Source of the DNA: Paracoccaceae bacterium
Lineage (GTDB): Bacteria; Pseudomonadota; Alphaproteobacteria; Rhodobacterales; Rhodobacteraceae
Direction: 5' to 3'
Assembly: GCA_016744015.1 (NCBI GenBank)
Contig: JADGFD010000005.1
Location: 66,208-130,207 of the forward strand
Length of the DNA: 64,000 nucleotides
A program made the translations under genes and the position numbers. This document shows, piece by piece, positions 8,342-62,968 of the stretch (position 1 is its first letter; each line of letters begins with the position of its first letter). A model generated the notes under the pieces. It did no database searches. It saw only the letters and a program-made list of their open reading frames with translations, and was not told the DNA's origin.

Positions 8342-8431
8342 TCTGTGCTCCTTTGCTTCAAGAAAGGCTAACATATTTTGAACCATACATATTGGATATT
8401 TGCGACAGTAAGAAGAAACAATGCTCGAAAT

Positions 8432-8461
8432 CCAAAAACGGCCACCCCTTTCGGGGCAGCC
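8432..8461 (-). terminator. intrinsic terminator-like hairpin after the yeeE-like gene pair
   Basis: GGCCACCCC-TTTC-GGGGCAGCC stem-loop followed by a T-run on the minus strand. Confidence 0.45.
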
Positions 8462-9886: not shown

Positions 9887-10153
9887 ATGTCAGACCTTCT
9901 CTCCACCTTTACGCTCGCTGATCTTGTCGGAATCTTCGGCACACTGATCGTAACAGCCGCCTACTTTGCCACCCAGATGCGATACTTAAATTCTGATGAC
10001 ATTTTGTTTCCCGTCGCCAATCTCGCTGGCTCTCTTTTTATCGTATATTCCCTTGTCTTCTCCTTTAATCTCGCCTCGGCCCTCATGGAATTTTTCTGGA
10101 TTCTCATCAGCCTAGCAGGAATCATCAATTACCTGCGCCGCAAAAGGGCTTGA
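9887..10153 (+). CDS. small membrane protein (2-3 TM)
   Basis: Hydrophobic 88-aa ORF whose stop overlaps the MoxR gene. Confidence 0.45.
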   Translation: MSDLLSTFTLADLVGIFGTLIVTAAYFATQMRYLNSDDILFPVANLAGSLFIVYSLVFSFNLASALMEFFWILISLAGIINYLRRKRA

Positions 10154-10196
10154 CGGCCGCGCGCTGTCGCCATCTACTTCCCTCAAAAGGATACGC

Positions 10197-11109
10197 CATG
10201 CCCTTGCCCGATAGCATCGAAGCCACCGAAAAAATGCTCGCCGATACCGGCTATATCTGCCCGCGAGCGCTGGCAACGGTAGCTTTCCTTTCGCTCAAGC
10301 TGGGCCGCCCGCTTTTCCTTGAAGGCGAAGCCGGTGTTGGCAAAACCGAGATCGCCAAAGCGCTCGCTAAAGGGCTGGGCCGCCGCCTTATCCGGCTGCA
10401 ATGCTATGAGGGCTTGGATGCCAACAGCGCCGTTTACGAATGGAATTTCGCGGCGCAAATGGTGGCTATCCGCACCGCAGAAGCCACCGATAGCACCAAT
10501 CGCAAAGCCCTCACCGACGAGCTATTCTCCGACGAATTCCTCATCCGCCGCCCACTCTTGGAAGCCATGCAACCCCAGCGCGGCGGCCCACCCGTGCTGC
10601 TGATAGACGAGCTAGACCGCACCGATGAGCCATTCGAGGCCTTCCTTTTGGAAGCCCTATCAGATTTCCAAGTCACCATCCCCGAGCTAGGCACCATCAA
10701 GGCCCCCGAGCCGCCCATCGTGATTGTCACCTCCAATCGCACCCGCGAAGTGCATGACGCCCTCAAGCGCCGCTGCCTTTACCACTGGGTTGACTACCCC
10801 GATTTTGACCGTGAAATGCAAATCCTGCAATCCCGCGCCCCCGACGCCACCGAGGCCCTCAGCCGCGAAATTGTCGCCTTTGTGCAGCGCCTGCGCTCTG
10901 AGGACCTGTTCAAAAAGCCCGGCGTCGCGGAAACCATAGACTGGGCCAAATGCCTGCTGGCGCTAGATGCCGTCGCCCTCTCCCCCCAGCTGATCGCCGA
11001 CACCCTAGGGGCCATTCTAAAATACCAAGATGACATCCAAAAGCTCGTGGGCAGCGAGGCCAGCAAGATTTTGGAAGAGGCCAAGAGGGGGCTGGAGGAC
11101 GGCGCATAG
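10197..11109 (+). CDS. MoxR-family AAA+ ATPase (CoxD-like)
   Basis: Walker A 'LEGEAGVGKTEIAKALA' and Walker B 'LLIDELDR'. SD AAGGA lies before ATG 10197; the alternative start is 10150. Confidence 0.85.
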
Positions 11110-11184
11110 AGACAGCACAACAAGCACTGGCATTTTCGCCCGCACAACGTATGCTTGCGTTGATAAACGAAAAGTAACCCACTC

Positions 11185-12426
11185 ATGAAAAAAACCATTG
11201 CCCTCCCCTTAGCTGCCGTCGCCCTTGTTGGCATGCTGGCCTTCGTCGCGTTTGTGCAGCTTACACCGGCCACAAGCCAACCCGTTCCCGAGCCTGCCGG
11301 AACCTACCCCGCTGACCACATCATCCGCATCACCGCGCTGTTGGAGTTTGACGGCAAGCCCGTGGTGGTAGACGAGCTTGTTACCTGCCTTGCCGAGGGC
11401 GCGGGCGGTTCTACCTCTGGGCGGCAGTTTTTGAGCTTCAGGCCCAATCGTATTCTGGTTGCCGTAGATACGCCTGATGGCGGGATGATCAGGTTTTCGG
11501 TTTTTCGCAGCTTGTGCTACGCTTATGGCAAAACTTGGGGTGAGACCGAAACCGAACGAACAATCCCTGATGGGTGGACGCCGGTTCTCACATGGTTTGA
11601 TGATCGAAATCCGCAAGAGTGGGTTGAAGGAATCATATACATCTCGGAAACCGCACTGAACGCCGAAAATGGACGCTTGCGGATCATCGAGGATTTTGCC
11701 CTCACCATTCCCGAACACCCATTTACGGAAAGCCTTCTGACCAAAGCCGAAGCGCAAGCGGTTGAGCGGGATTATTGGCAGGGGGTGCCACCAACCGGAT
11801 CTGATGTTTTTTGGCAATCCTCCGGTAGATTGGGCACTATGATTGAAGTGCCCGAAAGCATGTGGCGCAACCCCGCCACCCATTATCTACGCACTTCAAT
11901 TCATGCTAACCGCGATACAGACCCGCAGCCGCTTATCGATTTCCTTGACGGACTTGGCGAGGGGGATAGGATTATTGCGATTCCCTACTATCTGGATCCG
12001 GATGTTGGGCGAGACTCGGGGGATATGATGACTGAGGAAGCCCTGCGAATGTTGGATAGTTTTAACTATGGAAGGCATCCAGCAATGTTTGACTATCTGG
12101 AGCGCGGCGTTCCAAAAACAGATGCAGAACGTTTTGGTTTGCTGATTTCCGAAAATTCAACGCTCCGGTATCAGAATATCCCACTTGATTTGAACAGGTT
12201 CGATACGCGCATCCCTTGGACCTGCGAGGACAACGTAGCTACGCCCGATTTTGATAATCCGGGGCTGATTTATATCTTCACTCGCTCCCAACGCTGCACA
12301 CATCCTAACAATTTTGAACGGCTTGATTGGCCAGGATATGGCGAAATACCGGAATGGTATCCGGATTATGGAAACATGTTTTTCGACCAAAAGACCAAAA
12401 CTGTTTGGTATTACCGAACTAATTAA
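11185..12426 (+). CDS. hypothetical signal-anchored/secreted protein (413 aa), no recognisable domain
   Basis: N-terminal hydrophobic segment 'LPLAAVALVGMLAFVAFV'. GC is about 45-50% against about 62% in the flanks. Confidence 0.55.
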   Translation: MKKTIALPLAAVALVGMLAFVAFVQLTPATSQPVPEPAGTYPADHIIRITALLEFDGKPVVVDELVTCLAEGAGGSTSGRQFLSFRPNRILVAVDTPDGGMIRFSVFRSLCYAYGKTWGETETERTIPDGWTPVLTWFDDRNPQEWVEGIIYISETALNAENGRLRIIEDFALTIPEHPFTESLLTKAEAQAVERDYWQGVPPTGSDVFWQSSGRLGTMIEVPESMWRNPATHYLRTSIHANRDTDPQPLIDFLDGLGEGDRIIAIPYYLDPDVGRDSGDMMTEEALRMLDSFNYGRHPAMFDYLERGVPKTDAERFGLLISENSTLRYQNIPLDLNRFDTRIPWTCEDNVATPDFDNPGLIYIFTRSQRCTHPNNFERLDWPGYGEIPEWYPDYGNMFFDQKTKTVWYYRTN

Positions 12427-12437
12427 GGACAATAGAA

Positions 12438-12713
12438 ATGCCCGACAAACAAACCTACGCATTTATGGCTGCCGCCGCATATGACGAGCGGCGAGGTAGC
12501 GCTAATGACGACCATGTTATGGCCATTGAAAGCTATCTTGAAGAGAAAATGGGGTGGTTCAAAGAAAACCGTGGTGGCGGAGCCGCCGGCGCGTCCTATT
12601 CCGACCCATCCACCGGCATGCAGGCGGATGTTTGGACAAAAGGCTCCGAATACGTCATCGCCTTCCGCGGCACTGAGGGCAGCCGCACAAAGGGCAACGC
12701 CCTTAATGGTTAG
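12438..12713 (+). pseudogene. class-3 lipase (Lipase_3)-like N-terminal fragment, 91 codons
   Basis: 'YAFMAAAAYDE...VIAFRGTEGS' matches the region just upstream of the Lipase_3 catalytic Ser, which is absent. SD AAGGA. The TAG stop overlaps the VWA gene ATG. Confidence 0.4.
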
Positions 12714-13950
12714 CCTCCCCGATCTCGAAATCCCAGCAGACGGCAAGCTGGCCGCCAATATTACCTATTTCGCCCGTGCGCTTCGGGCGGCGGGCATTCC
12801 TGTGGGGGCGGGAAGGCTGATTGATGCGATTAGGGCGGTGGAGGCCGTGGGGTTTAGCGGGCGGCGTGATTTTTACTGGACGCTGCACGCCTGTTTTGTA
12901 AACCGCCCCGAGCAGCGGGTGGTTTTTGGGCAGGTTTTTCGGCTGTTTTGGCGCGACCCACAATTCCTTGAGCACATGATGGGCATGTTGCGCCCCACCC
13001 TGCGCGGGGCCAACGCGCCGCCCAATAAGAAAGACGCCGAGCGGCGGGCGGCGGAGGCCTTGCTCGATGGGGCTAACCAAGAGCTGCCGGATATGCAAGA
13101 AGACGGCGAGGAGGTCGAATTTGATGCGACCATCAGCTTTTCGGCCTCTGAAAAGCTCAAGCAGCAGGATTTTGAACAAATGAGCGCCGATGAGCTCGCC
13201 CGCGCCCGCCGTGCTATCGCGCAAATCACCCTGCCCATAAAACCCATCGCCAGCCGCCGCAGCCAAGCAGCCGCAAACGGCCCCCTGCCTGACTGGCGCG
13301 CCACGCTCCGCACCGCCATACGCACCGGCGGCGAGCTGCAAAGCATCAAGCGGCGCAAACGCAAGCAGCATTATCCTAATCTGGTGGCGCTGTGTGATAT
13401 CTCCGGCTCTATGTCGGGCTACTCCCGCATGCTGCTGCACTTTCTGCACGCCGCCAGCAATGCCAAAGGCGCGGGCTGGGCCAAGGTGCATAGCTTTACC
13501 TTTGGCACCCGCCTTACCAATATAACTCGCCACCTGCACCACCGTGATGTAGACGCCGCCCTGCACGCCGCTGGCCTGCAAGCCCAAGGTTGGGAGGGCG
13601 GCACCCGCATTGGTGAAAGCCTGCACGCCTTTAACCGCGATTGGTCCCGCCGCACCCTTGGCCAAGGTGCTGTCGTGCTGCTGATAACAGATGGCCTGGA
13701 TCGCGACGACGCAACACTTCTGGCCAAAGAGGCCGAGCGCCTCCGCCTCTCCTGCCGCCGCCTGATCTGGCTTAACCCACTCTTGCGCTGGGAGGGCTTC
13801 ACCCCCAAAGCCGCGGGCGTTAAGGCTCTGCTCCCTCATGTGGACACCTTCACCGCCAGCCACTCGATCGGCTCAATAGAGGCCCTCGCCAATATCCTGA
13901 GCCAAGCTGGAAATAGCGGCGACAAGGCGCGGCTTATGAGGTTGCTCTAG
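12706..13950 (+). CDS. VWA domain-containing CoxE-like protein
   Basis: 'DFYWTLHACFVNRPEQRVVFGQVFRLFWRDPQFLEHMM', and the VWA MIDAS 'DISGSMSG'. Confidence 0.85.
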   Translation: MVSLPDLEIPADGKLAANITYFARALRAAGIPVGAGRLIDAIRAVEAVGFSGRRDFYWTLHACFVNRPEQRVVFGQVFRLFWRDPQFLEHMMGMLRPTLRGANAPPNKKDAERRAAEALLDGANQELPDMQEDGEEVEFDATISFSASEKLKQQDFEQMSADELARARRAIAQITLPIKPIASRRSQAAANGPLPDWRATLRTAIRTGGELQSIKRRKRKQHYPNLVALCDISGSMSGYSRMLLHFLHAASNAKGAGWAKVHSFTFGTRLTNITRHLHHRDVDAALHAAGLQAQGWEGGTRIGESLHAFNRDWSRRTLGQGAVVLLITDGLDRDDATLLAKEAERLRLSCRRLIWLNPLLRWEGFTPKAAGVKALLPHVDTFTASHSIGSIEALANILSQAGNSGDKARLMRLL

Positions 13951-19597: not shown

Positions 19598-20824
19598 CTA
19601 GAAATATCGTGTAATATTTATCCCAAGGTTTGTGGGCGCTCTCAAGAAAACCCCCGAACCAGCCGAGGTTTCACGCCCGCCAAACTCTGTACCATTTGGG
19701 CCAAAGCCCTTGCTGGCATTCACCGAAATATCGAGGTTATCGCTTACAGACACCCCAGCCTGCACAGCGCCAAAAATGCTGCCGTCGTTCAGGCTTGTGA
19801 TCACGCTCGGAGATATAGTTATTGCCGCTGAAACGCTCAACTGTGCGCCCAGCGCCAAGAAGTCTTGCCCCACATTAAATAGCTGCCCTGTGGCTAGGCG
19901 GTCAGCTAAGGAAGCTGGCAAAGCGTCTAGTGGCGTCGCGGTATCCACACCAAAGCCATTATGAAAATACTCGGCGAAATAGGTGATGTTCATCTCGCCA
20001 ATGGTCCCACTATTGGAAATATTAGCAAGGAAATTCAATGCGGTGCTGCCATCAGCCAATAGCCATTGCCCGAGCTCAACATTCCATGCCGCATTGCCCA
20101 CCGGGCCGCCTAGGCCGAGGTTTACGAGCGTGTCACCATGGTCTTGCGCCAATAGCACCGTGCCGTCGAAATCACCCAAAAGCAAGCTGCTGCGCAGGGC
20201 CAGCGTGGATTCCTCCCACACCATCGGCCCCCCAGCCACCGCGCGGCGGGGCACAAATGCAGCTTCGATATCATTGCCATTGTCAAACAGCACCTGCGCA
20301 TAGGCCATTTCCACGCCCGGTTTATAAGCCGTATCCACCGCATTGGGCGCAAAAGGCGCAATAATGTCGGAGGGGCGAAAAACCAGCCCGCTTCCCCAAG
20401 TAACCGCCTGCCGCCCGAGCTTCAGTACAAAGCGCTGGTTTGAGTAGCTCACCGAAAGCCGGTCAATCCCTACCGTCATGCTTTGGTTGGTGTTGCTAAA
20501 AACCTCTGTGCTTAGGTCAAAGAAGCTGGGCGGTGGTGAGGGGGGAGTCATGCCCGCAAAAGCCCCGGCAAAGCCCACATTGTCACCCACCTGATAGCCA
20601 AGCAGCACTTGCGTTTCAAAGCGCAGCGCGCCTTCGCCGCCTTTCCAGATCAGCCGCGCTTTGGCGTCAAGCGTTTGGCGGGTTTCGAAGCCCAAAAGCG
20701 CATCTACACTGTCGGCCATTGCCCAATCAAAGCTGCCGCCAAAGTCCAGGCGCACAGAAACCGGATCCGCCAGTGCGGGGCCAGCCAGCAGGCTAGCTGC
20801 GAGTATCGCTGATAATTTGTCCAT
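19598..20824 (-). CDS. outer-membrane beta-barrel protein (alginate-export/porin-like), tentative
   Basis: Signal peptide 'AASLLAGPALA', an alternating beta-strand pattern, and a C-terminal aromatic residue (F). Confidence 0.5.
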   Translation of the reverse strand: MDKLSAILAASLLAGPALADPVSVRLDFGGSFDWAMADSVDALLGFETRQTLDAKARLIWKGGEGALRFETQVLLGYQVGDNVGFAGAFAGMTPPSPPPSFFDLSTEVFSNTNQSMTVGIDRLSVSYSNQRFVLKLGRQAVTWGSGLVFRPSDIIAPFAPNAVDTAYKPGVEMAYAQVLFDNGNDIEAAFVPRRAVAGGPMVWEESTLALRSSLLLGDFDGTVLLAQDHGDTLVNLGLGGPVGNAAWNVELGQWLLADGSTALNFLANISNSGTIGEMNITYFAEYFHNGFGVDTATPLDALPASLADRLATGQLFNVGQDFLALGAQLSVSAAITISPSVITSLNDGSIFGAVQAGVSVSDNLDISVNASKGFGPNGTEFGGRETSAGSGVFLRAPTNLGINITRYF

Positions 20825-38676: not shown

Positions 38677-39615
38677 ATGGAAGACGATGTTCATATTAAA
38701 TGGCTAATGCAAGGCGATGTGTCTATTGCATGGCAAGCCGCGCGAGACCTGCTGGGGGAAAACCGGCCCGATTTGCGCAGCCGAATTGCGACCGAAGGCT
38801 GGGGGAAGGCCTTTTTGGCCGCCCGCAACGCTGATGGCTTCTGGGGTGAACGGTTTTACGCCCCCCGCTGGGCCTGCACTCATTACGTGCTGCTGGAGCT
38901 CCAAGCCATGGGCTTCCCACCCGAGCACCCCGAAATACGCGCCATCGTGGCCCAAATTCTGGACACCCACATAGCGCGCGACGGCGGATTGGGAGAATCG
39001 GTGAATGGCCTCAAAAGCGACGTGTGCATCAACGGCATGTTTTTGAACTATGCCAGCTATTTTGGTGCTAGGGCCAACGGGCTGCGCTCGGTGATTGATT
39101 TTCTGCTTTCCATGCACATGCCCGATGGTGGTTTTAACTGTAGCCTCAATCGCGCGGGGGCCACGCACAGCTCACTTCACAGCACCACATCAGTGCTGGA
39201 AGGCTTCTGGGCGTATGAGAGCCATGGCTATACTTACCGGCTCGCCGAAGTGCAGCAGGCAGCACAGACAGCGCGGGCCTTTATCCTGCAACACCGATTT
39301 TACAAATCAGACCGCACGGGAAAAGTGATCAATAAAGACTTTCTCAAAATGCCTTACCCGCCGCGCTGGCGCTACAACACCTTGCGTGCACTTGACCATT
39401 TCCGTGCCGCCGGGCAGCCCTATGCCCCTGAAATGCAAGACGCGCTAGCAGCTCTTGAGGCACGGCGGCGGGCAGATGGCCTATGGCCGCGGATGGCTAT
39501 GATTCCGGGAAAGGTGTTTTTTACCATGGAGCCGCCGCGCGGGCCAAGCCGCTGGAACACCCTTCTGGCGCTGCGCGTGCTAAAAGCCTATCCGCGTGCG
39601 CCTAATGCGGCTTGA
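38677..39615 (+). CDS. hypothetical protein with four DGG(F/W/L) repeats, possibly a prenyltransferase/squalene-cyclase-like alpha/alpha-toroid fold
   Basis: Repeats 'NADGFWGE', 'ARDGGLGE', 'MPDGGFNC', 'RADGLWPR'. Its 3' end overlaps the cmk 3' end by 28 nt. Confidence 0.4.
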
Positions 39616-51105: not shown

Positions 51106-51990
51106 TTAATCAAGCGTTGAGGTATAAACCGCCACTAGATTGTTAAACGAATTATCAATCATCGGCGTTGAGTTGGTGAAGGTATTCCGCAAGCTACCGC
51201 CGCCAAACACCATAGATATGCCCGCATAAAAGCGGCTCTCATTGCTTACATCGTCATTGCCGTTGTCTTCACTCGCATGTAAGCCTTCATAGCCTGCATT
51301 AGCATAAAAATTGCTCTGGCCAAGCCGCATAGTGCCTTCAAGACCATACACGGTAAGCGCCAATGGGTCGCTGTGAATGATGCCCAGGCCATGCCCAAGG
51401 CTACCAGTGATCATGAAATTGTCATTCAGGAAATAGTTGGCACGCACCTGCCCAAACAGTTCGTTGTTATAATCCAGTGCATTGTGGTCACTATCTGAGC
51501 TGGCAAAACCAAGCTGAGCGGCCAAGGCAATATTGCCAAACGTGCGCGCAGCTTCAATGCCATACCAGTTGCCCGGTCCGCCATCACTCCCATTTTCGTT
51601 ATATTGATAACCCGCGCCAGCAAAAGCACCAACTTTATAGCCGGCAAGATCGAAGTTAATGTGGGCTGTACCGCCATATGCACGGTAATAATCGGCCGAG
51701 TCGCTGCCAAGTTCGTAATTGGCATCAATCTGCCAACCCAAGCGACCGCCACCAATACCGCCACCCAATGATGCCTCTATGCCATAATAGCTGTAGGTTG
51801 GGTCATCATAGTCACAGCAGTTTTCATCTGCGACCGACGCGCCACCATAATAACCTGTTACATAGCCGCCAAAAGTGCTGGCAGCTGGTGCCATCACCGC
51901 AGTGCTAACAGGGGAAACATCATCAAACGAACCAGCCAACGCCGGGGCGGCAAAAGCCGAGGTGATCAAAAGTATAGAAATCGTTTTCAT
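51106..51990 (-). CDS. outer-membrane porin-like beta-barrel protein
   Basis: Signal peptide, Gly/Tyr-rich amphipathic strands and a C-terminal aromatic residue. Confidence 0.6.
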   Translation of the reverse strand: MKTISILLITSAFAAPALAGSFDDVSPVSTAVMAPAASTFGGYVTGYYGGASVADENCCDYDDPTYSYYGIEASLGGGIGGGRLGWQIDANYELGSDSADYYRAYGGTAHINFDLAGYKVGAFAGAGYQYNENGSDGGPGNWYGIEAARTFGNIALAAQLGFASSDSDHNALDYNNELFGQVRANYFLNDNFMITGSLGHGLGIIHSDPLALTVYGLEGTMRLGQSNFYANAGYEGLHASEDNGNDDVSNESRFYAGISMVFGGGSLRNTFTNSTPMIDNSFNNLVAVYTSTLD

Positions 51991-52103: not shown

Positions 52104-53153
52104 CTACAATTTCCATGTGCGCTCCAGCAACGCCAGCCAGTTCCGGTAGCAAAGCTTTTCCATAAGCGCCTCGTCATAGCCATGTGCCACCATTGCGGCG
52201 CGCAGGTTTGGCAAGCCAGAAATATCACCGATCGCCTCAGGCACCATCGCCCCATCAAAATCCGAGCCGAGGCCCACATGGTCTTCCCCCGCCAGTTTAA
52301 TCATATGATCAAGGTGGCGCAGCATGGTTTCCAGTGCAACTTCCGCCTTCATCTGCCCATCAGGGCGCAAAAATCCGGTGGCAAAGTTCAGCCCCACCAT
52401 ACCGCCACTTTGGCCGATGGTGCGGAACTGGTCATCGGTCAGGTTACGGGCATGGGGGCATATTTCATAGGCGTTGGAGTGCGTTGCCACAATCGGGGCA
52501 TCGCTGGTTTCCACCACATCCCAAAACCCTTTTTCATTGAGATGGGACATATCAAGCATAATCCCGAGCGCATTGCATTCGCGCACAAGGTCAAAGCCCG
52601 CAGGGCTAAGGCCGGGCCCGGTATCGCCAGTTGACGGGTAGCGAAACGGCACCCCCTCGGCAAAAATCGTCGGCCGAGACCACACCAGCCCAAGTGAGCG
52701 CAGCCCCGCGCGGTAAAGCACATGCAGTGCATCGAGATCACGGTCTATCGGCTCCGCGCCTTCCATATGCATAATCGCCGCCATGGTGCCGCTTTGCATG
52801 GTTTTGGCGATATCCGCCACACTCGTACAAATCTTCAGCGCGCCGTCGCTTTCAAGATCTGCCAGCATCCGCGCCTGCTTCATAGCCACGCCCAGCGCAA
52901 AGCCTTGGTCAACGGCGGATGGCCTTGGGATATCATATTCAGGCTGCATCATTTGCTCAAAAATGCCGTCTTCATCCATCGGGCTAGGCACCCAAATGGC
53001 AAAAAACCCGCCGCCAAAGCCGCCTGCCTTGGCTTTTGGCACATCTATATGGTGCTCGTTTCCGGTGCTAAACGCACTGCGCGCCGCCCGCCCGCCTTCA
53101 AATTGCTTAAGCAGCGCATCATTATGGCCATCAAAAATTAGCGGTGTGTTCAT
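52104..53153 (-). CDS. membrane dipeptidase (peptidase M19 family)
   Basis: 'FDGHNDALLK', 'HLNEKGFWDV', 'GLGSDFDG'. Confidence 0.85.
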   Translation of the reverse strand: MNTPLIFDGHNDALLKQFEGGRAARSAFSTGNEHHIDVPKAKAGGFGGGFFAIWVPSPMDEDGIFEQMMQPEYDIPRPSAVDQGFALGVAMKQARMLADLESDGALKICTSVADIAKTMQSGTMAAIMHMEGAEPIDRDLDALHVLYRAGLRSLGLVWSRPTIFAEGVPFRYPSTGDTGPGLSPAGFDLVRECNALGIMLDMSHLNEKGFWDVVETSDAPIVATHSNAYEICPHARNLTDDQFRTIGQSGGMVGLNFATGFLRPDGQMKAEVALETMLRHLDHMIKLAGEDHVGLGSDFDGAMVPEAIGDISGLPNLRAAMVAHGYDEALMEKLCYRNWLALLERTWKL

Positions 53154-54076
53154 GGTGCGTCCGGCAAATATTGCCCCTCCAGCTTAGTCAGAAATTCGGC
53201 AAAGGCTTTGGCCACGGGTGGCAGCGCTCGCCCTGCCCGCCGGATTAAAAACCAGTGGCGCACAATCGGCAAGCCCTCAAATTCCAGTTTAACAAGCCGC
53301 CCGCTTTCCAGCTCGGCGCTCACCGCCTGCGCCGAAATAAACGCCAGCCCCAGCCCCGCAATCGCCGATTGTTTGATGGTCTCGTTACTCTCGATCACCA
53401 TGGTTTTATATTCCCGCCCCTCACCGATTCTATCCAAGAATCGCTGCATAAGAATGCGGGTTCCCGAGCCGCGCTCACGGGAAAGAAAGGTCTCTGCCAG
53501 CAATTCATCGGGCGAAATGTCGCGCTTACCCGCTAGCGGGTGGCCTTTCGGCGCGACCAAAACGTGGGGATTATCCCCAAGCACGTCCGCCTCTACCGGC
53601 GGGTTTCGCGGTGGCCGCCCCATGATCGCAAGGTCAATTTTCTTGTCACCCAGCGCCTCAATTATCTCCGCCCGATTGCCCACAAACAAGCTTATTTCCA
53701 CATCAGGTAGCCCCTTTTGCGCGGCCACCACAATGCGCGGCGCAAAGTATTTTGCCGTACTCACCACCCCCAAAGTCAGGTGGCCCACCTTCCCCGTTTT
53801 AAGAGCATTAATATTATTATAACAGGTGGTTAACGAGTTCTCGATTTGCCTCGTGGTTGCCAGAACCACCTCCCCGCTTTGGGTCAGCACCGTTTTTCCA
53901 TCCGGCCCGCGATGCACCATCTGCACCCCGAAATTGCTCTCCAGCAACTTAAGCTGGGTCGAGACCGCAGGCGCGGTTACATTCAGCAGCTCAGCTGCCG
54001 CCGTCAGGTTTCCGGCTTTCACAATCGCGGCCAACGCGCGCAATTGCTTTAGGGTTATGGCGTTTTGCTGTGTCAT
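53150..54076 (-). CDS. cbbR: LysR-family regulator, CbbR-like (divergent from cbbF)
   Basis: HTH 'LKQLRALAAIVKAGNLTAAAELLNVTAPAVSTQLKLLE'. Its stop overlaps the dipeptidase start (ATGA). Confidence 0.75.
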   Translation of the reverse strand: MTQQNAITLKQLRALAAIVKAGNLTAAAELLNVTAPAVSTQLKLLESNFGVQMVHRGPDGKTVLTQSGEVVLATTRQIENSLTTCYNNINALKTGKVGHLTLGVVSTAKYFAPRIVVAAQKGLPDVEISLFVGNRAEIIEALGDKKIDLAIMGRPPRNPPVEADVLGDNPHVLVAPKGHPLAGKRDISPDELLAETFLSRERGSGTRILMQRFLDRIGEGREYKTMVIESNETIKQSAIAGLGLAFISAQAVSAELESGRLVKLEFEGLPIVRHWFLIRRAGRALPPVAKAFAEFLTKLEGQYLPDAP

Positions 54077-54178: not shown

Positions 54179-55189
54179 ATGACCTCAGACACCAACCTGA
54201 GCGGCTTTCTTTCAGATAAGCCCAAAGACCTAAGCGAGGCCATTCTTGCGGTGGCAAAAGTCGGTAAGGACCTTGCCGCCCTCATCTCACGTGGTGCCCT
54301 TGGTGGCGAATTAGGCGGAGCCGTGGGCGAAAATATGGGCGGTGACCAACAAAAAGCGTTGGATGTTATGGCCGATGATGTTTTTGCCGCCGCACTCACC
54401 AAAACCCAAGTAAAATATTACGCCTCGGAAGAGCAGGACGAGGTGATTACGCTTAATCCAAACGGCCACCTAGCCCTCGCGATTGACCCGCTGGATGGGT
54501 CCTCCAATATCGACGTTAACGTTTCCATCGGCACGATTTTTTCGATTTTTGAGGCGAATGAGGGCGCAAATGAAAGCTTCCTGCGCCCGGGCAAAGAGCA
54601 GATCGCGGCTGGCTACATTATTTTTGGCCCGCAAACCGGCATTATGCTCACCTTAGGTGATGGCACAGCGATGTTTATTCTCGACCATGAAAATGGCGAA
54701 TATATGCTGGTGAATCCGCGCGTAAACATCGTGCCTGATGCCATTGAATACGCCATTAACGCCTCGAATTATCGCCACTGGGCCACGCCCATTCGTGCTT
54801 ATATTGATGATATGATCGAAGGTGCCGACGGCATTCACGAGCGCAATTTCAACATGCGATGGGTGGCGAGCCTGATCGCCGAAACCCACCGCATTATCTC
54901 GCGCGGGGGCATCTTCCTTTATCCGGGTGACAACCGCGACGGCTACAAAATGGGTCGCCTCCGCATGGTTTATGAAGGCGCGCCCGTGGCCTTTGTGGTT
55001 GAGCAAGCAGGCGGCATGGCCACCGATGGCAAAGACCGTATTTTAGACCAAACCCCAACCGAGCTGCACGGCCGCACCCCGCTGGTATTTGGCTCCAAAA
55101 ACAAAGTAACCCGCGTGGTCGCCTATCACGACCTTCCAGAAACCGAAATGTCGCCGCTATTTAAAAAGCGCGGCCTGTTTAACGCTTAA
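54179..55189 (+). CDS. cbbF: fructose-1,6-bisphosphatase class 1
   Basis: 'DPLDGSSNIDVNVSIGTIF' and 'GGIFLYPGD'. Confidence 0.9.
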   Translation: MTSDTNLSGFLSDKPKDLSEAILAVAKVGKDLAALISRGALGGELGGAVGENMGGDQQKALDVMADDVFAAALTKTQVKYYASEEQDEVITLNPNGHLALAIDPLDGSSNIDVNVSIGTIFSIFEANEGANESFLRPGKEQIAAGYIIFGPQTGIMLTLGDGTAMFILDHENGEYMLVNPRVNIVPDAIEYAINASNYRHWATPIRAYIDDMIEGADGIHERNFNMRWVASLIAETHRIISRGGIFLYPGDNRDGYKMGRLRMVYEGAPVAFVVEQAGGMATDGKDRILDQTPTELHGRTPLVFGSKNKVTRVVAYHDLPETEMSPLFKKRGLFNA

Positions 55190-55200
55190 GGATCAAGAAA

Positions 55201-56073
55201 ATGAGCACCAAGCACCCGATCATCTCTGTTACTGGCTCTTCCGGCGCAGGCACATCGACGGTTAAAAACACCTTTGACCAAATCTTCCGCCGCGAGGGCC
55301 TAAAAGCCGTGAGCATTGAGGGCGACGCCTTTCACGCCTTTGACCGCGCCACCATGAAGGTTGAATTTGAAAAGCGTATCGCCGCGGGCGACCACTCTTT
55401 CAGCCACTTCTCCTATGAAGCCAACGAGCTGGCCGAGCTAGAGCGCGTATTCCGCGAATATGGCGAAACCGGCGGCGGTAAAACCCGCCACTATGTGCAT
55501 AATGACGAAGAAGGCAAAGCGCTGGGCGCGGCCTCTGGCACCTTCACCGACTGGGCCGATTTTGAATCTGGCACAGATATGTTGTTTTACGAGGGCCTGC
55601 ACGGCGCTGTAAGAAACGACGAAGTGGACTTGCCGAAATATGCTGACCTGAAAGTCGGCGTCGTGCCGGTCATTAACCTAGAGTGGATCCAGAAAATTCA
55701 CCGCGACCGTAACCAGCGCGGCTATTCTACCGAGGCCGTGACCGACGTAATTTTGCGCCGGATGGATGCCTATGTTAAATGCATCACCCCGCAATTCAGC
55801 CAAACCGATATCAACTTTCAGCGCGTGCCGGTGGTCGACACCTCAAACCCGTTCATCGCCCGCAGCATTCCTACGCCGGATGAGAGCCTTGTGGTGATCC
55901 GCTTCAAAGACCCGCACGGGATTGATTTCCCATACCTGACCAACATGATTGAGGGCAGCTGGATGAGCCGCGCTAACTCTATCGTGGTGCCCGGTGGGAA
56001 AATGGACCTCGCCATGCAACTCATCCTCACCCCGCTGATCCTGCGGCTGGCCGATAACGCGAAAAGGGCTTAA
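55201..56073 (+). CDS. prk: phosphoribulokinase
   Basis: 'IISVTGSSGAGTSTV' and 'EGLHG'. Confidence 0.9.
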   Translation: MSTKHPIISVTGSSGAGTSTVKNTFDQIFRREGLKAVSIEGDAFHAFDRATMKVEFEKRIAAGDHSFSHFSYEANELAELERVFREYGETGGGKTRHYVHNDEEGKALGAASGTFTDWADFESGTDMLFYEGLHGAVRNDEVDLPKYADLKVGVVPVINLEWIQKIHRDRNQRGYSTEAVTDVILRRMDAYVKCITPQFSQTDINFQRVPVVDTSNPFIARSIPTPDESLVVIRFKDPHGIDFPYLTNMIEGSWMSRANSIVVPGGKMDLAMQLILTPLILRLADNAKRA

Positions 56074-56076
56074 ATT

Positions 56077-58041
56077 ATGGAAAACAATATGGCAAACGCC
56101 ATCCGTGCGCTCAGCATGGATGGCATTCAAAAAGCAAATTCCGGCCACCCCGGCATGCCCATGGGCATGGCCGATGTCGCCACGGTGCTTTTTAACCGTT
56201 TCATGAAAATCGACCCGGCCAACCCTGATTGGGCCGACCGTGACCGCTTCGTTTTGTCCGCTGGCCACGGCTCCATGCTGCTTTATGCCATCCACCACCT
56301 GCTTGGTTATGATGACATGCCGATGTCAGAAATCGAGAATTTCCGCCAGATGGGTGCCCGCACCGCTGGCCACCCCGAATATGGCCACGCCAAAGGTATT
56401 GAAACCACCACGGGCCCGCTGGGCTCCGGCATTGCCACCGCTGTGGGCATGGCGCTCGCTGAGCGCATGCAAAACGCGCGCTTTGGAGATGATCTGGTAG
56501 ACCACAACACCTACGTAATTGTGGGTGACGGCTGCCTTATGGAAGGCATTAGCCATGAAGCGATTGATTTTGCAGGCAACTTGGGCTTGGGCAAAATGAT
56601 CGTACTGTGGGATGATAACTCGATCTGTATTGACGGCGACACGTCGCTTTCCACCGGCACTGACCAAGTGGCGCGCTTTGCGGCCAGTAAATGGCACACT
56701 ATTGCCGTGGACGGCCACGATAAAGACGCCGTTGCTGCCGCGATCGAGGTGGCAAAAGCCGACCCGCGCCCAAGCTTCATTGCTTGCAAAACCATCATCG
56801 GTTTTGGCGCCCCCAACAAGCAAGGCACCGCCTCTACCCACGGCGCGCCGCTGGGAGAGAACGAAATCGCAGCCACCCGCGAGGTGCTCGGCTGGCCTCA
56901 TGCGCCCTTCAGCATCCCTGCGGATGTGAAGGCCAACTGGGAAGCCATCGCCACTAAAGGCAACAAAGCGCAAGCTTCGTGGGCCGCGCGCTTGCAAGAC
57001 TCGCCCGACGCGAAGACGTTCCGCGCGGCCATGGCGGGGCCTGATTTGGCCGCGCTGAATACAGCGCTGACCGCGTATCGCAAAACCCTCAGCGCAGATG
57101 CCCCCAAGGTCGCTACCCGTAAAGCCAGCCAAATGGCGCTTGAGGTTATCAACGTCACCACCGACACCACCATCGGCGGCTCGGCTGATCTCACCGGCTC
57201 CAATCTGACCAAAACCACCACCACCGATCCCGTTTCGGCGGATGATTTCTCTGGTCGTTACATTTATTACGGTGTGCGCGAGCACGGCATGGCGGCCGCT
57301 ATGAATGGCCTCGCCTTGCATGGTGGCTTTGTGCCCTATGGCGGCACCTTCTTGGTGTTTGCCGATTATATGCGCGGTGCCATGCGCCTTTCGGCCCTTA
57401 TGGGCAAGCGTGTGATCTATGTGCTTACACATGACAGCATCGGCCTTGGCGAAGATGGCCCAACCCACCAGCCGGTGGAAACCATCGCCTCCCTTCGCGC
57501 CATTCCCAACCTCAATGTGTATCGTCCCGCAGATGCGGTTGAGACGGCCGAGGCTTGGGAACTGGCTCTGGCGGACGAGGGCACACCCTCCGTGCTCTGC
57601 CTATCTCGCCAGGGCCTACCAACTTTGCGCACCGCGCATACTGATGAGCTGCAAAGCTCTAAAGGTGCTTACGTGCTTCGCGAAGCCGAGGGCGACCGTG
57701 ATCTCACCCTCATCGCCACCGGTTCCGAAGTTGAAACTGCCATGAAGGCCGCTGACAAGCTGGCCGAAAAAGGTGTAAAAACCGCCGTGATTTCCGCCCC
57801 GTGTTTCGAGCGTTTCAAAGCCCAACCCGCCGCCTACCGCGCCACTGTGCTCGGCAATGCGCCGCGCGTTGGCGTTGAGGCCGCCATCCAGCAAAGCTGG
57901 GGGGGCTTGCTTGGCGACAATTCTGCCTTTATTGGCATGAGTAGCTTTGGCGCTTCGGCACCGGCAGACGAGCTATACGAACATTTTGGCATCACCGCGC
58001 AGGCGGTGGTAGACGCCGCAACCAGACTTATCAACGCATAG
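56077..58041 (+). CDS. tkt: transketolase
   Basis: '[28 protein letters not shown]' and the ThDP motif 'GDGCLMEG'. Confidence 0.95.
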
Positions 58042-58054
58042 AGGGAATTCTCAC

Positions 58055-59053
58055 ATGACTGTAAAAGTAGCCATCAACGGCTTTGGCCGCATCGGCCGTA
58101 ACGTGCTCCGCGCCATCATAGAATCTGGCCGGACAGACATTGAAGTTGTTGCCATCAACGACCTTGGTTCGGTTGAATATAATGCCCACCTTCTGCAATT
58201 TGATAGCGTGCACGGCAAATTCTCTGCCGATGTGAAAGTTGACGGTGATACGATCAACGTTGGCACCGGCCCTATTAAAGTCACCGCCATCCGCAACCCT
58301 GACGAGCTGCCATGGGCTGGCGTAGACATCGCCATGGAATGCACAGGTTTCTTTACCGCCAGGGACAAGGCCGCGCTTCACCTCAAAAACGGCTCCAAAA
58401 AAGTGCTTATTTCGGCACCCGGCGCCAATGCTGACAAAACCATCGTTTATGGTGTGAATGATGACACGCTAACAGCCGACGACATTATCGTGTCTAACGC
58501 CTCTTGCACCACCAACTGCCTATCCCCCGTGGCCTATGTTCTGGACAACCTTGTGGGCATAAAAAGCGGTTTCATGACCACGGTGCACTCTTACACCGGT
58601 GACCAGCCAACGCTCGACACCATGCATAGCGACCTTTACCGCGCGCGCGGTGCGGCCCTTAACATGATCCCGACCTCCACCGGCGCGGCCAAGGCTGTTG
58701 GCCTTGTATTGCCCCAGCTTGACGGCAAGCTTGATGGTGTTTCCATCCGCGTGCCTACGCCAAATGTTTCGGTGGTTGACCTGTGCTTCCTGCCAAAACG
58801 CGCCACAAGTGTTGACGAAATCAACGACGCCATTCGCGCCGCTGCTGATGGCCCGCTGAAAGGCGTGCTGGGCTATACGGACCTCAAAAACGTGTCGTCT
58901 GACTTCAACCACGACCCACATTCCTCAATTTTCCACACCGACCAAACCAAGGTTATGGAAGACGGCATTGTGCGGATTTTGACATGGTATGACAACGAGT
59001 GGGGCTTCTCTAACCGGATGGCCGATACCGCGGTTGCCATGAGCAAACTCTAA
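58055..59053 (+). CDS. gap: glyceraldehyde-3-phosphate dehydrogenase
   Basis: 'VAINGFGRIGR' and 'ASCTTNCL'. Confidence 0.95.
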   Translation: MTVKVAINGFGRIGRNVLRAIIESGRTDIEVVAINDLGSVEYNAHLLQFDSVHGKFSADVKVDGDTINVGTGPIKVTAIRNPDELPWAGVDIAMECTGFFTARDKAALHLKNGSKKVLISAPGANADKTIVYGVNDDTLTADDIIVSNASCTTNCLSPVAYVLDNLVGIKSGFMTTVHSYTGDQPTLDTMHSDLYRARGAALNMIPTSTGAAKAVGLVLPQLDGKLDGVSIRVPTPNVSVVDLCFLPKRATSVDEINDAIRAAADGPLKGVLGYTDLKNVSSDFNHDPHSSIFHTDQTKVMEDGIVRILTWYDNEWGFSNRMADTAVAMSKL

Positions 59054-59104: not shown

Positions 59105-60154
59105 ATGGCCCTTATTACCCTTCGCCAATTGCTGGACCACGCCGCCGAAAATGATTACGGTATGCCAGCGTTTAACATTAACAACATGGAGCAAGGCCTT
59201 GCAATCATGCGCGGCGCGGAAAAAACTAATTCGCCCGTGATCCTGCAAGCCTCACGCGGTGCGCGTTCTTATGCGGGCGACATTATGCTCCGGCATATGA
59301 TTCAGGCGCTGGCTGAGATGTATCCGGATATTCCGATCTGTATGCACCAAGACCACGGCAATAATGAGCAGACCTGTATGTCTGCCATCAAATACGGCTT
59401 CACCTCGGTGATGATGGATGGCTCGCTGAAAGCCGACATGAAAACACCGGCTGATTTTGCTTATAATGTTGACATCTCCGAGCGGGTTGCGCGCTTTTCG
59501 CATTGGGTTGGGGCGAGTGTTGAGGGGGAACTTGGGGTTCTTGGCTCACTCGAAACCGGCATGGCGGCTGAGGAAGACGGCTCTGGTGCGTCTGGCAAGC
59601 TGAGCATGGAGCAACTGCTGACAGACCCTGGCGAGGCGGCTGATTTTGTAGCCAAAACCAAGGTAGACGCGCTGGCAATTGCCTGTGGCACCTCCCACGG
59701 CGCCTACAAGTTCACCAGCAAGCCTACGGGTGATTCACTGGCGATGGAGCGGATCGAGGCCATCCACGCCAAAATTCCGAATGTTCACTTGGTTATGCAC
59801 GGCTCATCAAGCGTGCCGCAATATCTGCAAGACCTTATCAACGAAAACGGTGGCGACATGGCGCAGACCTACGGTGTGCCGGTTGAGGAAATCGAGCGCG
59901 GCATCAAATCCGGCGTGCGCAAGGTGAATATTGATACCGATAACCGCATGGCGCTCACAGGCACCTTCCGCAAGGTTGCCAAGGAGAGCCCGTCCGAGTT
60001 TGACCCGCGCAAATTCATGATCCCGGCGATGGCCGCTATGGAAGAGCTTGTGGTGGACCGTTTTGAGCGCTTTGGCGCGGCGGGCAATGCTGGCAAGATC
60101 AAGGTTATCCCGCTGGATGACATGGCCAAGCGCTATGCTGACGGCTCGCTTTAA
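59105..60154 (+). CDS. cbbA: fructose-bisphosphate aldolase class II (CbbA-type)
   Basis: '[10 protein letters not shown]' and 'HQDHG'. Confidence 0.9.
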
Positions 60155-60181
60155 AGGCGAACACTAAGGAAGGGAGGGGAC

Positions 60182-60937
60182 ATGGATCACACTGATCGTT
60201 TTTTGAGCCTCTCCCTTGCCGCGCCGGATTTGGCGGCCCCCCACGTGCTGGCCGCCTATATCCTCAAGCCCGCTGACGGGCATGATTTCCTACAAACCGT
60301 TGCCAGTTTTGCCGCTGAAAGTGGCCGAGGCACACAAGTGCCGCTGCCCATGATGGCCGATGCGCTAATACGCGCGCCAGGTAAAACTGGCACAGCCAAG
60401 ATTTTCTCGATGAGTATTTCGGCTGATGACCTCAATGAGATAGACATGCGCGCCGAAGCCGCACTGCCGGCCTTTAAGCCCCCCCCAGACAGCCTCGCCT
60501 TTCATGTAGACACCTCCTACCTCGCTGGCCCCATGGGCTTTGGCCCTATGGAAGGAAATGAGGCCGACCGGCCGATCGCCTGCATGATCGCGCAAAACAT
60601 CGCCCAAGGCCCCTATTTTGAGCAAAACTGGTATGGGCTAAAGCGCTCTGCGGCCATTGCTTCCGGCGGCATAAATGCCCCGCGGCTGCCTTCATTCCTA
60701 CAAAACCTCGGCCATTCCAACTTCATCCTCGCGGCTGACGGCGGAGCCTTTGGCCATATTGACGGCCCGTTGGCAGGCGCATGTTACCTGCGCCAAGCCG
60801 AGGCCTGCTGGCTAGCGCGTGCCGACCCGTTTGACTTTGCCGCAAACCATAAAGAATTCGCCCGCGCCTTCCTCAGCTTTGAGCAAGACGCCGATATCAT
60901 CCACCCCGGCTGGCGCGCCGCGCTTAGCCAAGCCTAA
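60182..60937 (+). CDS. cbbM: RuBisCO form II (CbbM)-derived ORF with large internal in-frame deletions and loss of catalytic residues; probable non-catalytic remnant
   Basis: The N-terminus 'HVLAAYILKP...FAAESGRGT' and the C-terminus 'GGAFGHIDGP', 'HKEFARAF.SF..DADIIHPGWR' match form II RuBisCO. The ORF is 251 aa against about 460, lacks the KPKLG region, and reads 'GFGPMEG' in place of 'GFGKMEG'. Strong SD GGAAGGGAGG. Confidence 0.7.
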   Translation: MDHTDRFLSLSLAAPDLAAPHVLAAYILKPADGHDFLQTVASFAAESGRGTQVPLPMMADALIRAPGKTGTAKIFSMSISADDLNEIDMRAEAALPAFKPPPDSLAFHVDTSYLAGPMGFGPMEGNEADRPIACMIAQNIAQGPYFEQNWYGLKRSAAIASGGINAPRLPSFLQNLGHSNFILAADGGAFGHIDGPLAGACYLRQAEACWLARADPFDFAANHKEFARAFLSFEQDADIIHPGWRAALSQA

Positions 60938-60957: not shown

Positions 60958-61641
60958 ATGGACCGTTCAATTAAAATCGCCCCGTCGATCCTATCAGCCG
61001 ATTTCGCCAATTTCGGACAAGAGATCCGCGCCATTGAGGACCAAGGCTGTGACTGGGTACATGTGGACGTGATGGACGGCCACTTTGTGCCCAACCTCAC
61101 CTTTGGCCCCCCCGCCGTGGCCGCCTTTCGCCCACACGTAAAAACCGTGATGGATGTGCACCTGATGATCTCTCCGGTGGACCAGTATATTGAGGCATAC
61201 GCCAAGGCGGGCGCTGACTATATTTCGGCCCATCTAGAGGCCACCACCCACCCACACCGCACCTTGCAAGCCATTCGCGCCACGGGCGCAAAGGCGGGCC
61301 TTGCGCTTAACCCCGGCACAGGGATTGGCGATATCGAGTATCTGCTTGATATGGTGGATATGTTTGTGGTGATGACTGTAAACCCCGGTTTTGGCGGGCA
61401 AAAGTTCATCCACTCACAAATCGAAAAGGTGAAAAACCTGCGGGCTATGATCGGGGATCGCCCGATCCATATCCAGATTGATGGTGGCATTACCACCGAA
61501 ACCGCACCCCTTATGGCGGCAGCGGGTGCCGACGTATTGGTGGCTGGGTCGGCCGTGTTTAACGGTGGCACGGTGGATACCCCCGAGGTTTACGGCGCTA
61601 ATATCAAAGCTATCCGCGCAGCAGCAGAGGCGGCACGGTAA
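60958..61641 (+). CDS. rpe: ribulose-phosphate 3-epimerase
   Basis: 'IAPSILSADF...HVDVMDGHFVPN'. Confidence 0.95.
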   Translation: MDRSIKIAPSILSADFANFGQEIRAIEDQGCDWVHVDVMDGHFVPNLTFGPPAVAAFRPHVKTVMDVHLMISPVDQYIEAYAKAGADYISAHLEATTHPHRTLQAIRATGAKAGLALNPGTGIGDIEYLLDMVDMFVVMTVNPGFGGQKFIHSQIEKVKNLRAMIGDRPIHIQIDGGITTETAPLMAAAGADVLVAGSAVFNGGTVDTPEVYGANIKAIRAAAEAAR

Positions 61642-61642
61642 T

Positions 61643-62284
61643 ATGAAATCTGTAGTATTTGATCTGGATGGCACGCTGATCCACAGCGCGCCAGACCTGC
61701 AAGCCGCCGCCAACAAAATGCTGGCTGATTACGGCCTTGCGCCGCTCGACATGGCCACGATTGAGGGCTTCATCGGCAATGGTGTGCCCAAGCTGGTGGA
61801 GCGTTGCTTGCGGGCCTATGGCAAGCCCCAAAGCGAGGAGGCCATCGACAAAATGCGGGCGTATTATGGTGCCGACCCATTTACGCTGACCGAGCCTTAT
61901 GTGGGCGTGGTGGATTGCCTTGAGGCGCTAAAGGCGGCAGGCATCCAGCTTGCTGTTTGCACCAACAAGCCTTTGGCCCCTGCCCTGACCATTCTTGATG
62001 GTCTCAACCTCACGAAGTATTTCGACGTGGTCGTTGGCGGAGACACCTATTCCACCCATAAACCAGACCCACAGCCACTGCTGGGCTGTATGGACAAAAT
62101 GGGAGCAGATATGGCCAACACAGTTTATGTGGGCGATAGCGAGACCGATGCGCTGACAGCGCAGAACGCCGATATGACCTTTGCGCTATTTTCCGGTGGT
62201 TACCGTAAAACCCCGTGTGAAGAGCTGCGGCACCACTTCTTGTTTGACGATTTTGCGGCTCTGACGCCTTACCTGAAAGGGTGA
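61643..62284 (+). CDS. gph: phosphoglycolate phosphatase (HAD)
   Basis: 'VVFDLDGTL' and 'VGDSETD'. Confidence 0.8.
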   Translation: MKSVVFDLDGTLIHSAPDLQAAANKMLADYGLAPLDMATIEGFIGNGVPKLVERCLRAYGKPQSEEAIDKMRAYYGADPFTLTEPYVGVVDCLEALKAAGIQLAVCTNKPLAPALTILDGLNLTKYFDVVVGGDTYSTHKPDPQPLLGCMDKMGADMANTVYVGDSETDALTAQNADMTFALFSGGYRKTPCEELRHHFLFDDFAALTPYLKG

Positions 62285-62287
62285 CTC

Positions 62288-62968
62288 ATGGCTATTAAGG
62301 CGCTGATTTTTGACGTGGATGGAACGCTCGCAGAAACCGAAGAAGCCCATCGGCAGGCCTTCAATGATACCTTTAAAGCCAACGGGATAGCGTGGGCGTG
62401 GGATGTGCCGATGTATAGCATCTTGCTCAAAACGACTGGCGGCAAGGAGCGGATGCAGGCATATCAGCAGGCTCACCGGAGCGGTGAGCCGCAAATGGGT
62501 TGGGAGCGGATTAAAGACCTGCACGCACAGAAAACCGAACGCTATGTGGAGATACTGGCCTCTGGTGGATTACCTTTGCGCACGGGTGTGGCTGACTTGA
62601 TTGAGCGGGCCGCAGCCGCTGGGCTGCGGCTGGCGATTGCCACCACCACCAGCCGCCCCAATGTAGATGCGCTTACGGCCTGCTGCTGGGGCAAAACACC
62701 CGAAGAGGTTTTTGAAGTGGTGGCCACAGGTGAGCAGGTGAAGGCCAAGAAGCCCGCGCCTGATCTCTTTGAACTAGCGCTTGAGAGGCTGGGCCTGCCA
62801 GCGGCTGAATGCCTTGCCTTTGAGGACTCCCGCAACGGGGTGCTTTCAGCCATGGGGGCCGGGCTGCGCACGATTGTGACACCGGGGCAGTATACGCTGG
62901 AGGATGATTTTAGCGGCGCGGAAGCTGTGATTCCTTCCTTGGAAGGCTTCGAGCTTCAAGGATTGTGA
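62288..62968 (+). CDS. cbbY: HAD-family hydrolase CbbY-like
   Basis: 'LIFDVDGTLAETE' and 'FEDSRNG'. Confidence 0.8.
   Translation: MAIKALIFDVDGTLAETEEAHRQAFNDTFKANGIAWAWDVPMYSILLKTTGGKERMQAYQQAHRSGEPQMGWERIKDLHAQKTERYVEILASGGLPLRTGVADLIERAAAAGLRLAIATTTSRPNVDALTACCWGKTPEEVFEVVATGEQVKAKKPAPDLFELALERLGLPAAECLAFEDSRNGVLSAMGAGLRTIVTPGQYTLEDDFSGAEAVIPSLEGFELQGL

Follow-up and report, generated by a model that had tools for sequence, protein, structure and literature searches.

Form II RuBisCO (CbbM) is an enzyme of about 460 residues with an eight-stranded barrel. In Rhodospirillum rubrum numbering, which is used here for all active-site positions, K191 is the lysine whose carbamate binds Mg2+, E194 a metal ligand, and K329 the loop-6 lysine required for the addition of CO2. 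Site-directed K191E and K329X mutants of the R. rubrum enzyme are reported to lose carboxylation, and the K329 mutants to keep enolisation. RuBisCO-like proteins that have been characterised all fall, to our knowledge, within the deep form IV lineage. In R. capsulatus and Rhodobacter sphaeroides, cbbM is the last gene of a cbbF-P-T-G-A-M run with a divergent cbbR (the cbbII operon), to which R. capsulatus adds E-Z-Y.

In the 64-kb stretch of DNA analysed here (the window), which comes from a Paracoccaceae bacterium, the slot between fba and rpe is occupied by an open reading frame of 251 codons (Table 1). Its product contains both RuBisCO large-subunit domains, RuBisCO_large (PF00016, 2.2e-38) and RuBisCO_large_N (PF02788, 4.8e-5). 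Among all PDB chains compared with phmmer, the best match is the form II CbbM of Rhodopseudomonas palustris (E=4e-70), while form III and form I chains match at 3e-15 or weaker. The alignment with 5KOZ, whose chain numbering includes a 20-residue tag, consists of three collinear blocks: residues 1-59 correspond to chain positions 21-82, 57-119 to 231-292, and 115-249 to 343-477. The protein is therefore closest to form II, but is far shorter than a complete enzyme of that form, and it scores 240.8 bits on the NCBIfam form II model, which has a cut-off of 489. AlphaFold2 returned a mean pLDDT of 55.7 for this remnant and 58.9 for a full-length control (P0054) with a similarly shallow alignment; because the control is predicted as poorly as the remnant, the low values are uninformative on the missing parts.

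The genes around the remnant are arranged as peptidase M19 and cbbR, followed by cbbF-prk-tkt-gap-fba-cbbM-like-rpe-HAD-HAD and then DUF3047, an order that holds in every member of the orthologous clade described below with enough flanking DNA. Full-length alignments to the orthologues, at about 80-97% identity, are obtained for cbbR, cbbF, prk, tkt, gap, fba, rpe and both HAD genes. In pairs that include the window, the neighbouring cbb genes have dN/dS values of 0.04-0.17, which are not above those of pairs without it. Judged by length and dN/dS against orthologues, these neighbours give no sign of general operon decay. No second RuBisCO gene was found within the 64-kb window and its 10-kb flanks.

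Table 1. Features of the cbb operon and the cbbM-like remnant, in window coordinates.
Feature	Position	Strand	Basis
cbbR, LysR-type regulator, divergent from operon	53150-54076	-	HTH_1 + LysR_substrate; 91-92% aa identity to orthologues; dN/dS 0.09-0.13
cbbF, fructose/sedoheptulose bisphosphatase, intact	54179-55189	+	Pfam FBPase; 92-97% identity; dN/dS 0.04-0.06
prk, phosphoribulokinase, intact	55201-56073	+	Pfam PRK; 91-94% identity; dN/dS 0.05-0.08 in window pairs
tkt, transketolase, intact	56077-58041	+	Orthologue alignment; dN/dS 0.11-0.14
gap, glyceraldehyde-3-phosphate dehydrogenase, intact	58055-59053	+	Orthologue alignment
fba, class II aldolase, CbbA, intact	59105-60154	+	Orthologue alignment; dN/dS 0.07-0.09
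Shine-Dalgarno-like GGAAGGGAGG, 4 nt short of ATG	60168-60177	+	Direct sequence reading
251-codon in-frame remnant of form II-derived, apparently non-carboxylating cbbM-like gene	60182-60937	+	Pfam, phmmer, codon alignment
Deletion 1 junction, 453 bp (151 codons) lost between 60343 and 60344	60344-60348	+	Codon alignment with L005-L009
3-nt insertion, VD-AY to VDTSY, exact placement ambiguous	60512-60514	+	Codon alignment
Deletion 2 junction, 165 bp (55 codons) lost between 60532 and 60533	60531-60536	+	Codon alignment with L005-L009
rpe, ribulose-phosphate 3-epimerase, intact, starts 20 nt past remnant stop	60958-61641	+	dN/dS 0.04-0.05
HAD hydrolase, gph/cbbZ position, intact	61643-62284	+	Orthologue alignment
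HAD hydrolase, cbbY position, intact	62288-62968	+	Orthologue alignment

Several other features of the window and of its relatives were recorded. Three consecutive window genes at 10150-13950 encode an AAA_5 (MoxR-type) ATPase, a 413-aa product without a Pfam match and a VWA_CoxE protein; the AAA+/VWA genes were considered as a CbbQ/CbbO activase and rejected, their Pfam assignments being AAA_5 and VWA_CoxE, a CoxD/E-like arrangement. Open reading frames of 294-413 aa without a Pfam match at E<=1e-5 lie at 51106-51990 (-), 38677-39615 (+), 11185-12426 (+) and 19598-20824 (-). The one at 51106-51990 directly precedes the peptidase M19-cbbR block, and L001 and L002, the two independent assemblies of this contig, both have a gene call there. 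Two allele types of gap are present: the window copy is 79-80% identical to those of L006 and L010 and 92-96% identical to those of L005, L008 and L012. The L006 and L010 copies are mutually close (dN 0.048), at odds with the cbbM-like tree, and the pattern suggests that gap may have been recombined or replaced within the operon. In the basal lineage, the first HAD gene (gph position, L010:12136-12771) encodes a protein with 65% identity to that of the window (dN about 0.3) and evolves far faster than the remaining operon genes.

The missing parts of the remnant were mapped by codon alignment of the window copy with five orthologues (L005-L009). The first deletion takes the greater part of the N-terminal domain together with barrel strands 1 and 2, which carry the equivalents of K166, K168, K191, D193 and E194, and the second takes barrel strands 5 and 6, with those of H287, R288 and H321; strand assignments on the form II fold follow established structural knowledge. 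A 62-residue middle block, from barrel helix 2 to strand 4, is retained between the two gaps. In total, 206 codons (151 + 55) are missing relative to the orthologues, and the lost pieces are absent from the whole 64-kb window. With K191, D193 and E194 gone, the window copy has neither the carbamylated lysine nor its neighbouring metal ligands. By alignment onto the form II fold, it is without four of the eight barrel strands, and what remains is predicted to be unable to form an eight-stranded barrel. Compared with intact orthologues in the same slot, the remnant has lost essential parts, as a pseudogene does, but it carries no frameshift or premature stop and its frame is open throughout.

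Neither deletion shifts the reading frame, and microhomology of 5-6 bp flanks each of them. In the orthologues, the segment lost in the first deletion is bordered at both ends by the direct repeat CTGCC(C), and the segment lost in the second by (CC)ATGG. Short direct repeats at both junctions are a signature that points to slippage or illegitimate recombination.

Much of what the first-pass annotation had read from this stretch was confirmed. The reading frame is CbbM-derived at both ends (Pfam; phmmer E=4e-70 over three collinear blocks), a second, shorter block is missing (55 codons), all 251 codons are open behind a strong Shine-Dalgarno sequence (GGAAGGGAGG at 60168-60177), and cbbR, cbbF, prk, tkt, gap, fba, rpe, gph and cbbY, which it had called intact, are all full length against their orthologues. 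It was also right that the catalytic core is absent, although the larger gap is 151 codons rather than about 200. Its account of two deletions held, but left out the retained middle block and the 3-nt insertion. The proline that it had noted at the position of loop-6 Lys329 (GFGPMEG) is present, but the orthologues already have arginine there rather than lysine (GFGRMEG).

Full-length relatives of the remnant exist and have their own distinctive features. When the remnant itself served as the protein query, the partial P0052 was the only member of this group to be recovered; the group emerged from a genome scan and from a search with L005. The scan, which covered one genome per GTDB species, gave five loci in Rhodobacteraceae or alphaproteobacterial metagenome-assembled genomes. 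Each has a full-length open reading frame of 451-460 codons in the same operon position as the remnant, and the encoded proteins share 76-80% identity with each other and about 58% with canonical Paracoccaceae CbbM. The N-terminal 56 residues of the remnant are 80-88% identical to the full-length orthologues, and L009 matches its C-terminal 135 residues at 80% identity. A protein search with L005 (= P0054), the closest relative, returned three tiers of matches. The first, clade A, comprises at least 14 clusters (74-100% identity to L005, 451-462 aa), all from Rhodobacteraceae-type metagenome assemblies; the second, clade B, comprises three clusters (60-63% identity); and the third is canonical form II (55-59% identity). 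Clade B (P0070, P0071, P0074; L014:806-2164) comes from short contigs on which the genomic context is seen in part. The C-terminal signatures DRPIACMIAQ and DADIIHPGWR are common to clades A and B.

The active sites of these proteins were compared at 19 classical positions across 186 full-length sequences (169 canonical form II, 14 clade A clusters and 3 clade B clusters). All 19 positions are invariant in canonical form II (169/169 in each case). At K191, clade A has E in 12 of 14 clusters and K in the other two, and clade B has D. At E194, clade A has Q (13/14) or L (1/14) and clade B has A, while at K329, clade A has R throughout (14/14) and clade B has T. N54 is replaced by Q (13/14) or A (1/14) in clade A and falls in an alignment gap in clade B. 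Two further positions, E48 and M330, are kept in all of clade A and are changed in clade B, to D (2/3) or N (1/3) and to L (3/3), respectively. The residues K166, K168, D193, H287, R288, H291, H321, S368, G370, G393 and G394 are unchanged throughout the 17 clusters of the two clades, and every residue that binds ribulose bisphosphate, at both phosphates, is retained in the full-length clade. Two clade A members, L008:2355-3734 (P0056) and L010:10001-11389 (P0067), have kept Lys191 and carry E194Q and K329R; one of them is the most basal member. Because these two have the latter changes and yet retain K191, it is suggested that the metal ligand and the loop-6 residue may have changed first within clade A, and the carbamyl-lysine later.

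In a neighbour-joining tree that held form II sequences only, clades A and B form a single group beside canonical form II, on a long stem of 0.19; canonical sequences are separated pairwise by 0.187 on average. On the NCBIfam form II model, clade A reaches 600 bits and clade B 640, compared with 878 for a canonical sequence and a cut-off of 489. This model is of the equivalog type, in which a score above the cut-off is taken to mean the same function. Consequently, the clade proteins are annotated as ribulose-bisphosphate carboxylase, and this is the label that they bear in the source databases. Scores on form IV models are far below their cut-offs, both for clade A (OiaX, 87 vs 700; MtnW, 64 vs 409 and 56 vs 514) and for clade B (39-79 bits; cut-offs 409-700), and the full-length clade lies outside the form IV lineage. 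It nevertheless has the property that defines a RuBisCO-like protein, namely that residues essential for carboxylation have been lost while selection has been retained. Large RuBisCO surveys exclude RuBisCO-like proteins by phylogeny (PMC7507306, PMC12663927), a procedure under which this clade would stay inside 'form II'. No account of a non-carboxylating clade derived from form II turned up in a literature search, which was thin on subscription journals and is weak evidence of novelty. The full-length relatives apparently represent an undescribed branch of form II RuBisCO that is without the residues for CO2 fixation.

The full-length genes are clearly under purifying selection, with pairwise dN/dS values of 0.12-0.19 (Nei-Gojobori) at dS from 0.4 to more than 1. 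The cbbM-like gene nevertheless has the highest dN/dS in the operon, compared with 0.03-0.10 for prk, fba, rpe and cbbF, and is its fastest-evolving gene: its dN is 0.07-0.25, where prk, fba and rpe have 0.02-0.06. The window copy has 8 private changes at columns that are invariant in the rest of clade A, where most members have 0-5; the most basal clade A member has 13, which are mostly conservative. Private changes in the window copy include Q219P and the radical R330P, L375P and G394D, the last of these in the phosphate-binding GGG. Private codon changes relative to seven orthologues number 13 non-synonymous and 4 synonymous in the cbbM-like gene of the window, against 32 and 76 in its other cbb genes combined, a count that leans towards non-synonymous changes by demanding identical codons in seven other taxa and is of comparative use only. 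A codon branch model (Goldman-Yang style, F3x4 frequencies, 250 codons, 8 taxa, neighbour-joining topology) gave a dN/dS of 0.25 on the terminal branch of the window against 0.147 in the background (p=0.067 against equality). A dN/dS of 1 over that whole branch, which is long at about 0.4 substitutions per codon, was rejected (p=3.6e-6). If the branch is read as a mixture of background and neutral evolution, the neutral part would take up about a tenth of it. This result fits a recent inactivation of the remnant, and weak ongoing constraint may also hold.

The same data bear on the possibility that the 251-residue protein is itself functional, as a minimised RuBisCO module in which, for example, the C-terminal helical part and strands 7 and 8 act as a partner or regulator. 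Three indels that are all multiples of three would be expected about once in 27 times if they were neutral and independent, the Shine-Dalgarno sequence has been kept, the terminal-branch dN/dS is 0.25 with a value of 1 rejected, and the C-terminal 135 residues remain at least 80% identical to those of relatives. Nonetheless, such a function is unlikely, since the remnant is unique (one single-member cluster, with no other copy bearing the deletions in the genomes, metagenomes and proteins searched), has lost half of the barrel strands, and carries private changes at clade-invariant sites, with two new prolines and the G-to-D change in GGG among them. The rejection of dN/dS=1 would in any case be expected of young deletions on a long branch (dS about 0.4).

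Another reading is that the whole clade is functionless DNA that is slowly degrading. The loss of three catalytic sites and the fast evolution of the cbbM-like gene within its operon would suit this idea, but it is very improbable given that seventeen independent clusters keep open frames of 450-462 codons, with a dN/dS of about 0.15, dS values that reach above 1, and all phosphate-binding residues invariant.

It is most improbable that a form II carboxylase still active until recently has been lost here, in a fresh decay of autotrophy. The form II derivation of the remnant and the otherwise intact operon are what such a loss would leave, but E194 and K329 are absent from all 14 same-slot orthologue clusters and K191 from 12 of them, whereas the canonical enzymes are invariant at these positions (169/169), and mutation of K191 or K329 in R. 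rubrum reportedly abolishes carboxylase activity. The loss of the canonical carboxylase site is old and lineage-wide, and only the two deletions are recent, because at least 14 orthologue clusters share that loss and, in diverging to dS values that can exceed 1, have remained under purifying selection.

The deletions themselves have been seen only in the window copy. Searches of GTDB species genomes, of JGI metagenomes and of the protein collection gave no second doubly deleted copy, one search pattern of the scans having spanned junction 1, and the remnant's protein cluster has a single member. The JGI scan gave no closer relative that would date the deletions more finely. All of the sequence derives from one metagenome sample (SAMN14086998, 'A5'), a bone microbiome associated with Osedax mucofloris from Byfjorden in Norway (PMC7883544). 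It is most improbable that the deletions are an assembly artefact or a minority strain of this single sample, as the ENA assembly (a 231-kb scaffold) is identical to the window over 13.8 kb and the Logan assembly over 12.7 kb, though possibly from the same reads, the 5-6 bp junction repeats are too short for a k-mer graph collapse, and the many private point changes in the remnant are consistent with real divergence.

Taken together, these observations make it likely that the window carries a recent and most likely non-functional relic, produced by two microhomology-mediated deletions in a lineage-specific cbbM-like gene whose product was not a carboxylase. The remnant alone is an ordinary gene relic. 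Confidence in this is weakened by a frame that stays open through three indels, a good ribosome-binding site, the rejection of dN/dS=1 and the marginal nature of the rise in dN/dS. In this relic, replication slippage or illegitimate recombination would have removed 453 and 165 bp, and the frame would have remained open by chance, or because an out-of-frame lesion would lower the expression of rpe, gph and cbbY. The full-length parent would retain the ability to bind ribulose bisphosphate, or else a bisphosphate similar to it. Its role would then be either that of a non-carboxylating enzyme, catalysing an enolisation or isomerisation, or that of a ligand-binding partner in the cbb operon. That function may then have become dispensable in the organism of the window.

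The two interpretations offered by the first-pass annotation fared differently. A 'very recent decay of autotrophy' is not supported, as orthologues in at least 14 lineages already carry K191E, E194Q and K329R. A 'repurposed non-catalytic RuBisCO-derived protein' suits the full-length clade well, but is not supported for the remnant, which is unique, has lost half of its strands and bears radical substitutions. The comparison of the orthologous locus in close relatives that it had proposed yielded full-length genes in the same slot, with identical synteny.

The full-length proteins look like an independently evolved RuBisCO-like protein. With a slight preference, the clade may be regarded as a second, independent and recent origin of such a protein, from a form II enzyme within a Calvin-cycle operon. 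It would bind the ribulose bisphosphate made by prk and either catalyse a new enediol reaction or have a regulatory or sequestering role, with the genome of the window as a natural knockout that shows this function to be dispensable.

A conserved phosphoribulokinase without a canonical carboxylase at the locus raises the question of what becomes of ribulose bisphosphate. The retention of prk may indicate that another RuBisCO exists unseen, or that this compound has a new fate. A second, canonical RuBisCO could be present elsewhere in the genome, like the form I operon of Rhodobacter sphaeroides, and this would explain why prk has been kept. Since clade proteins score above the equivalog cut-off and are named as carboxylases, surveys that equate cbbM plus prk with autotrophic potential would miscount these marine Rhodobacteraceae. 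Several of the clade assemblies bear names that suggest subseafloor or hydrothermal sampling, while the window sample is bone-associated. A young lineage in which only the metal/carbamate site and the loop-6 lysine have changed, with the pocket and operon kept, would offer a tractable model for the loss or redirection of RuBisCO chemistry.

Shortened cbbM genes of the canonical type were also observed. In a Logan contig of Jhaorihella thermophila (SRR4234953; L004:7077-8456), a canonical-type cbbM (GYGKMEG) is split over two reading frames: one, at 7175-8074, covers residues 1-297, and the other, at 7986-8453, covers residues 271-426. The annotation gives the gene a 151-aa product named 'ribulose-bisphosphate carboxylase large chain' (P0039, 10 member sequences), and the cbb operon is otherwise intact, with pgk and fba called as one 767-aa product. 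This looks like either a separate decay of cbbM in the Roseobacter group or a sequencing frameshift. Short open reading frames of 150-341 aa derived from canonical-type cbbM are represented by P0040, P0050, P0048, P0053, P0036, P0012, P0030 and P0051, in the last of which the cbbM C-terminus is fused to rpe. Their contigs are 24 kb to 1.6 Mb long, and contig ends therefore do not explain them. Truncation of cbbM may be recurrent in marine Rhodobacteraceae/Paracoccaceae.

Among known systems, form II CbbM of R. rubrum and R. palustris (5RUB/9RUB, 4LF1, 5KOZ) is the best match, both for a full-length member (E=1e-167) and for the remnant (4e-70). The full-length clade resembles it in size (about 460 aa), in its slot between fba and rpe, and in its phosphate-binding and most catalytic residues, but differs in overall sequence (55-59% identity) and in the replacement of K191, E194 and K329, to which the remnant adds the absence of 206 codons. 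Form IV proteins (the MtnW/YkrW enolase, the R. rubrum RLP isomerase and OiaX) likewise lack carboxylation residues and are kept by selection. In contrast to them, the clade scores below the cut-offs of the RuBisCO-like protein models, differs from canonical form II at only 3-4 of 19 active-site residues, and sits in a cbb operon with prk. The cbbII operon of R. capsulatus and R. sphaeroides shares its gene order and divergent cbbR with the window locus, but the cbbM of those model organisms encodes an active carboxylase. Finally, the site-directed R. rubrum K191E and K329X mutants are changed at the same positions as the clade; those mutants were made in the laboratory, whereas the changes in the clade are natural, combined and fixed in a lineage.
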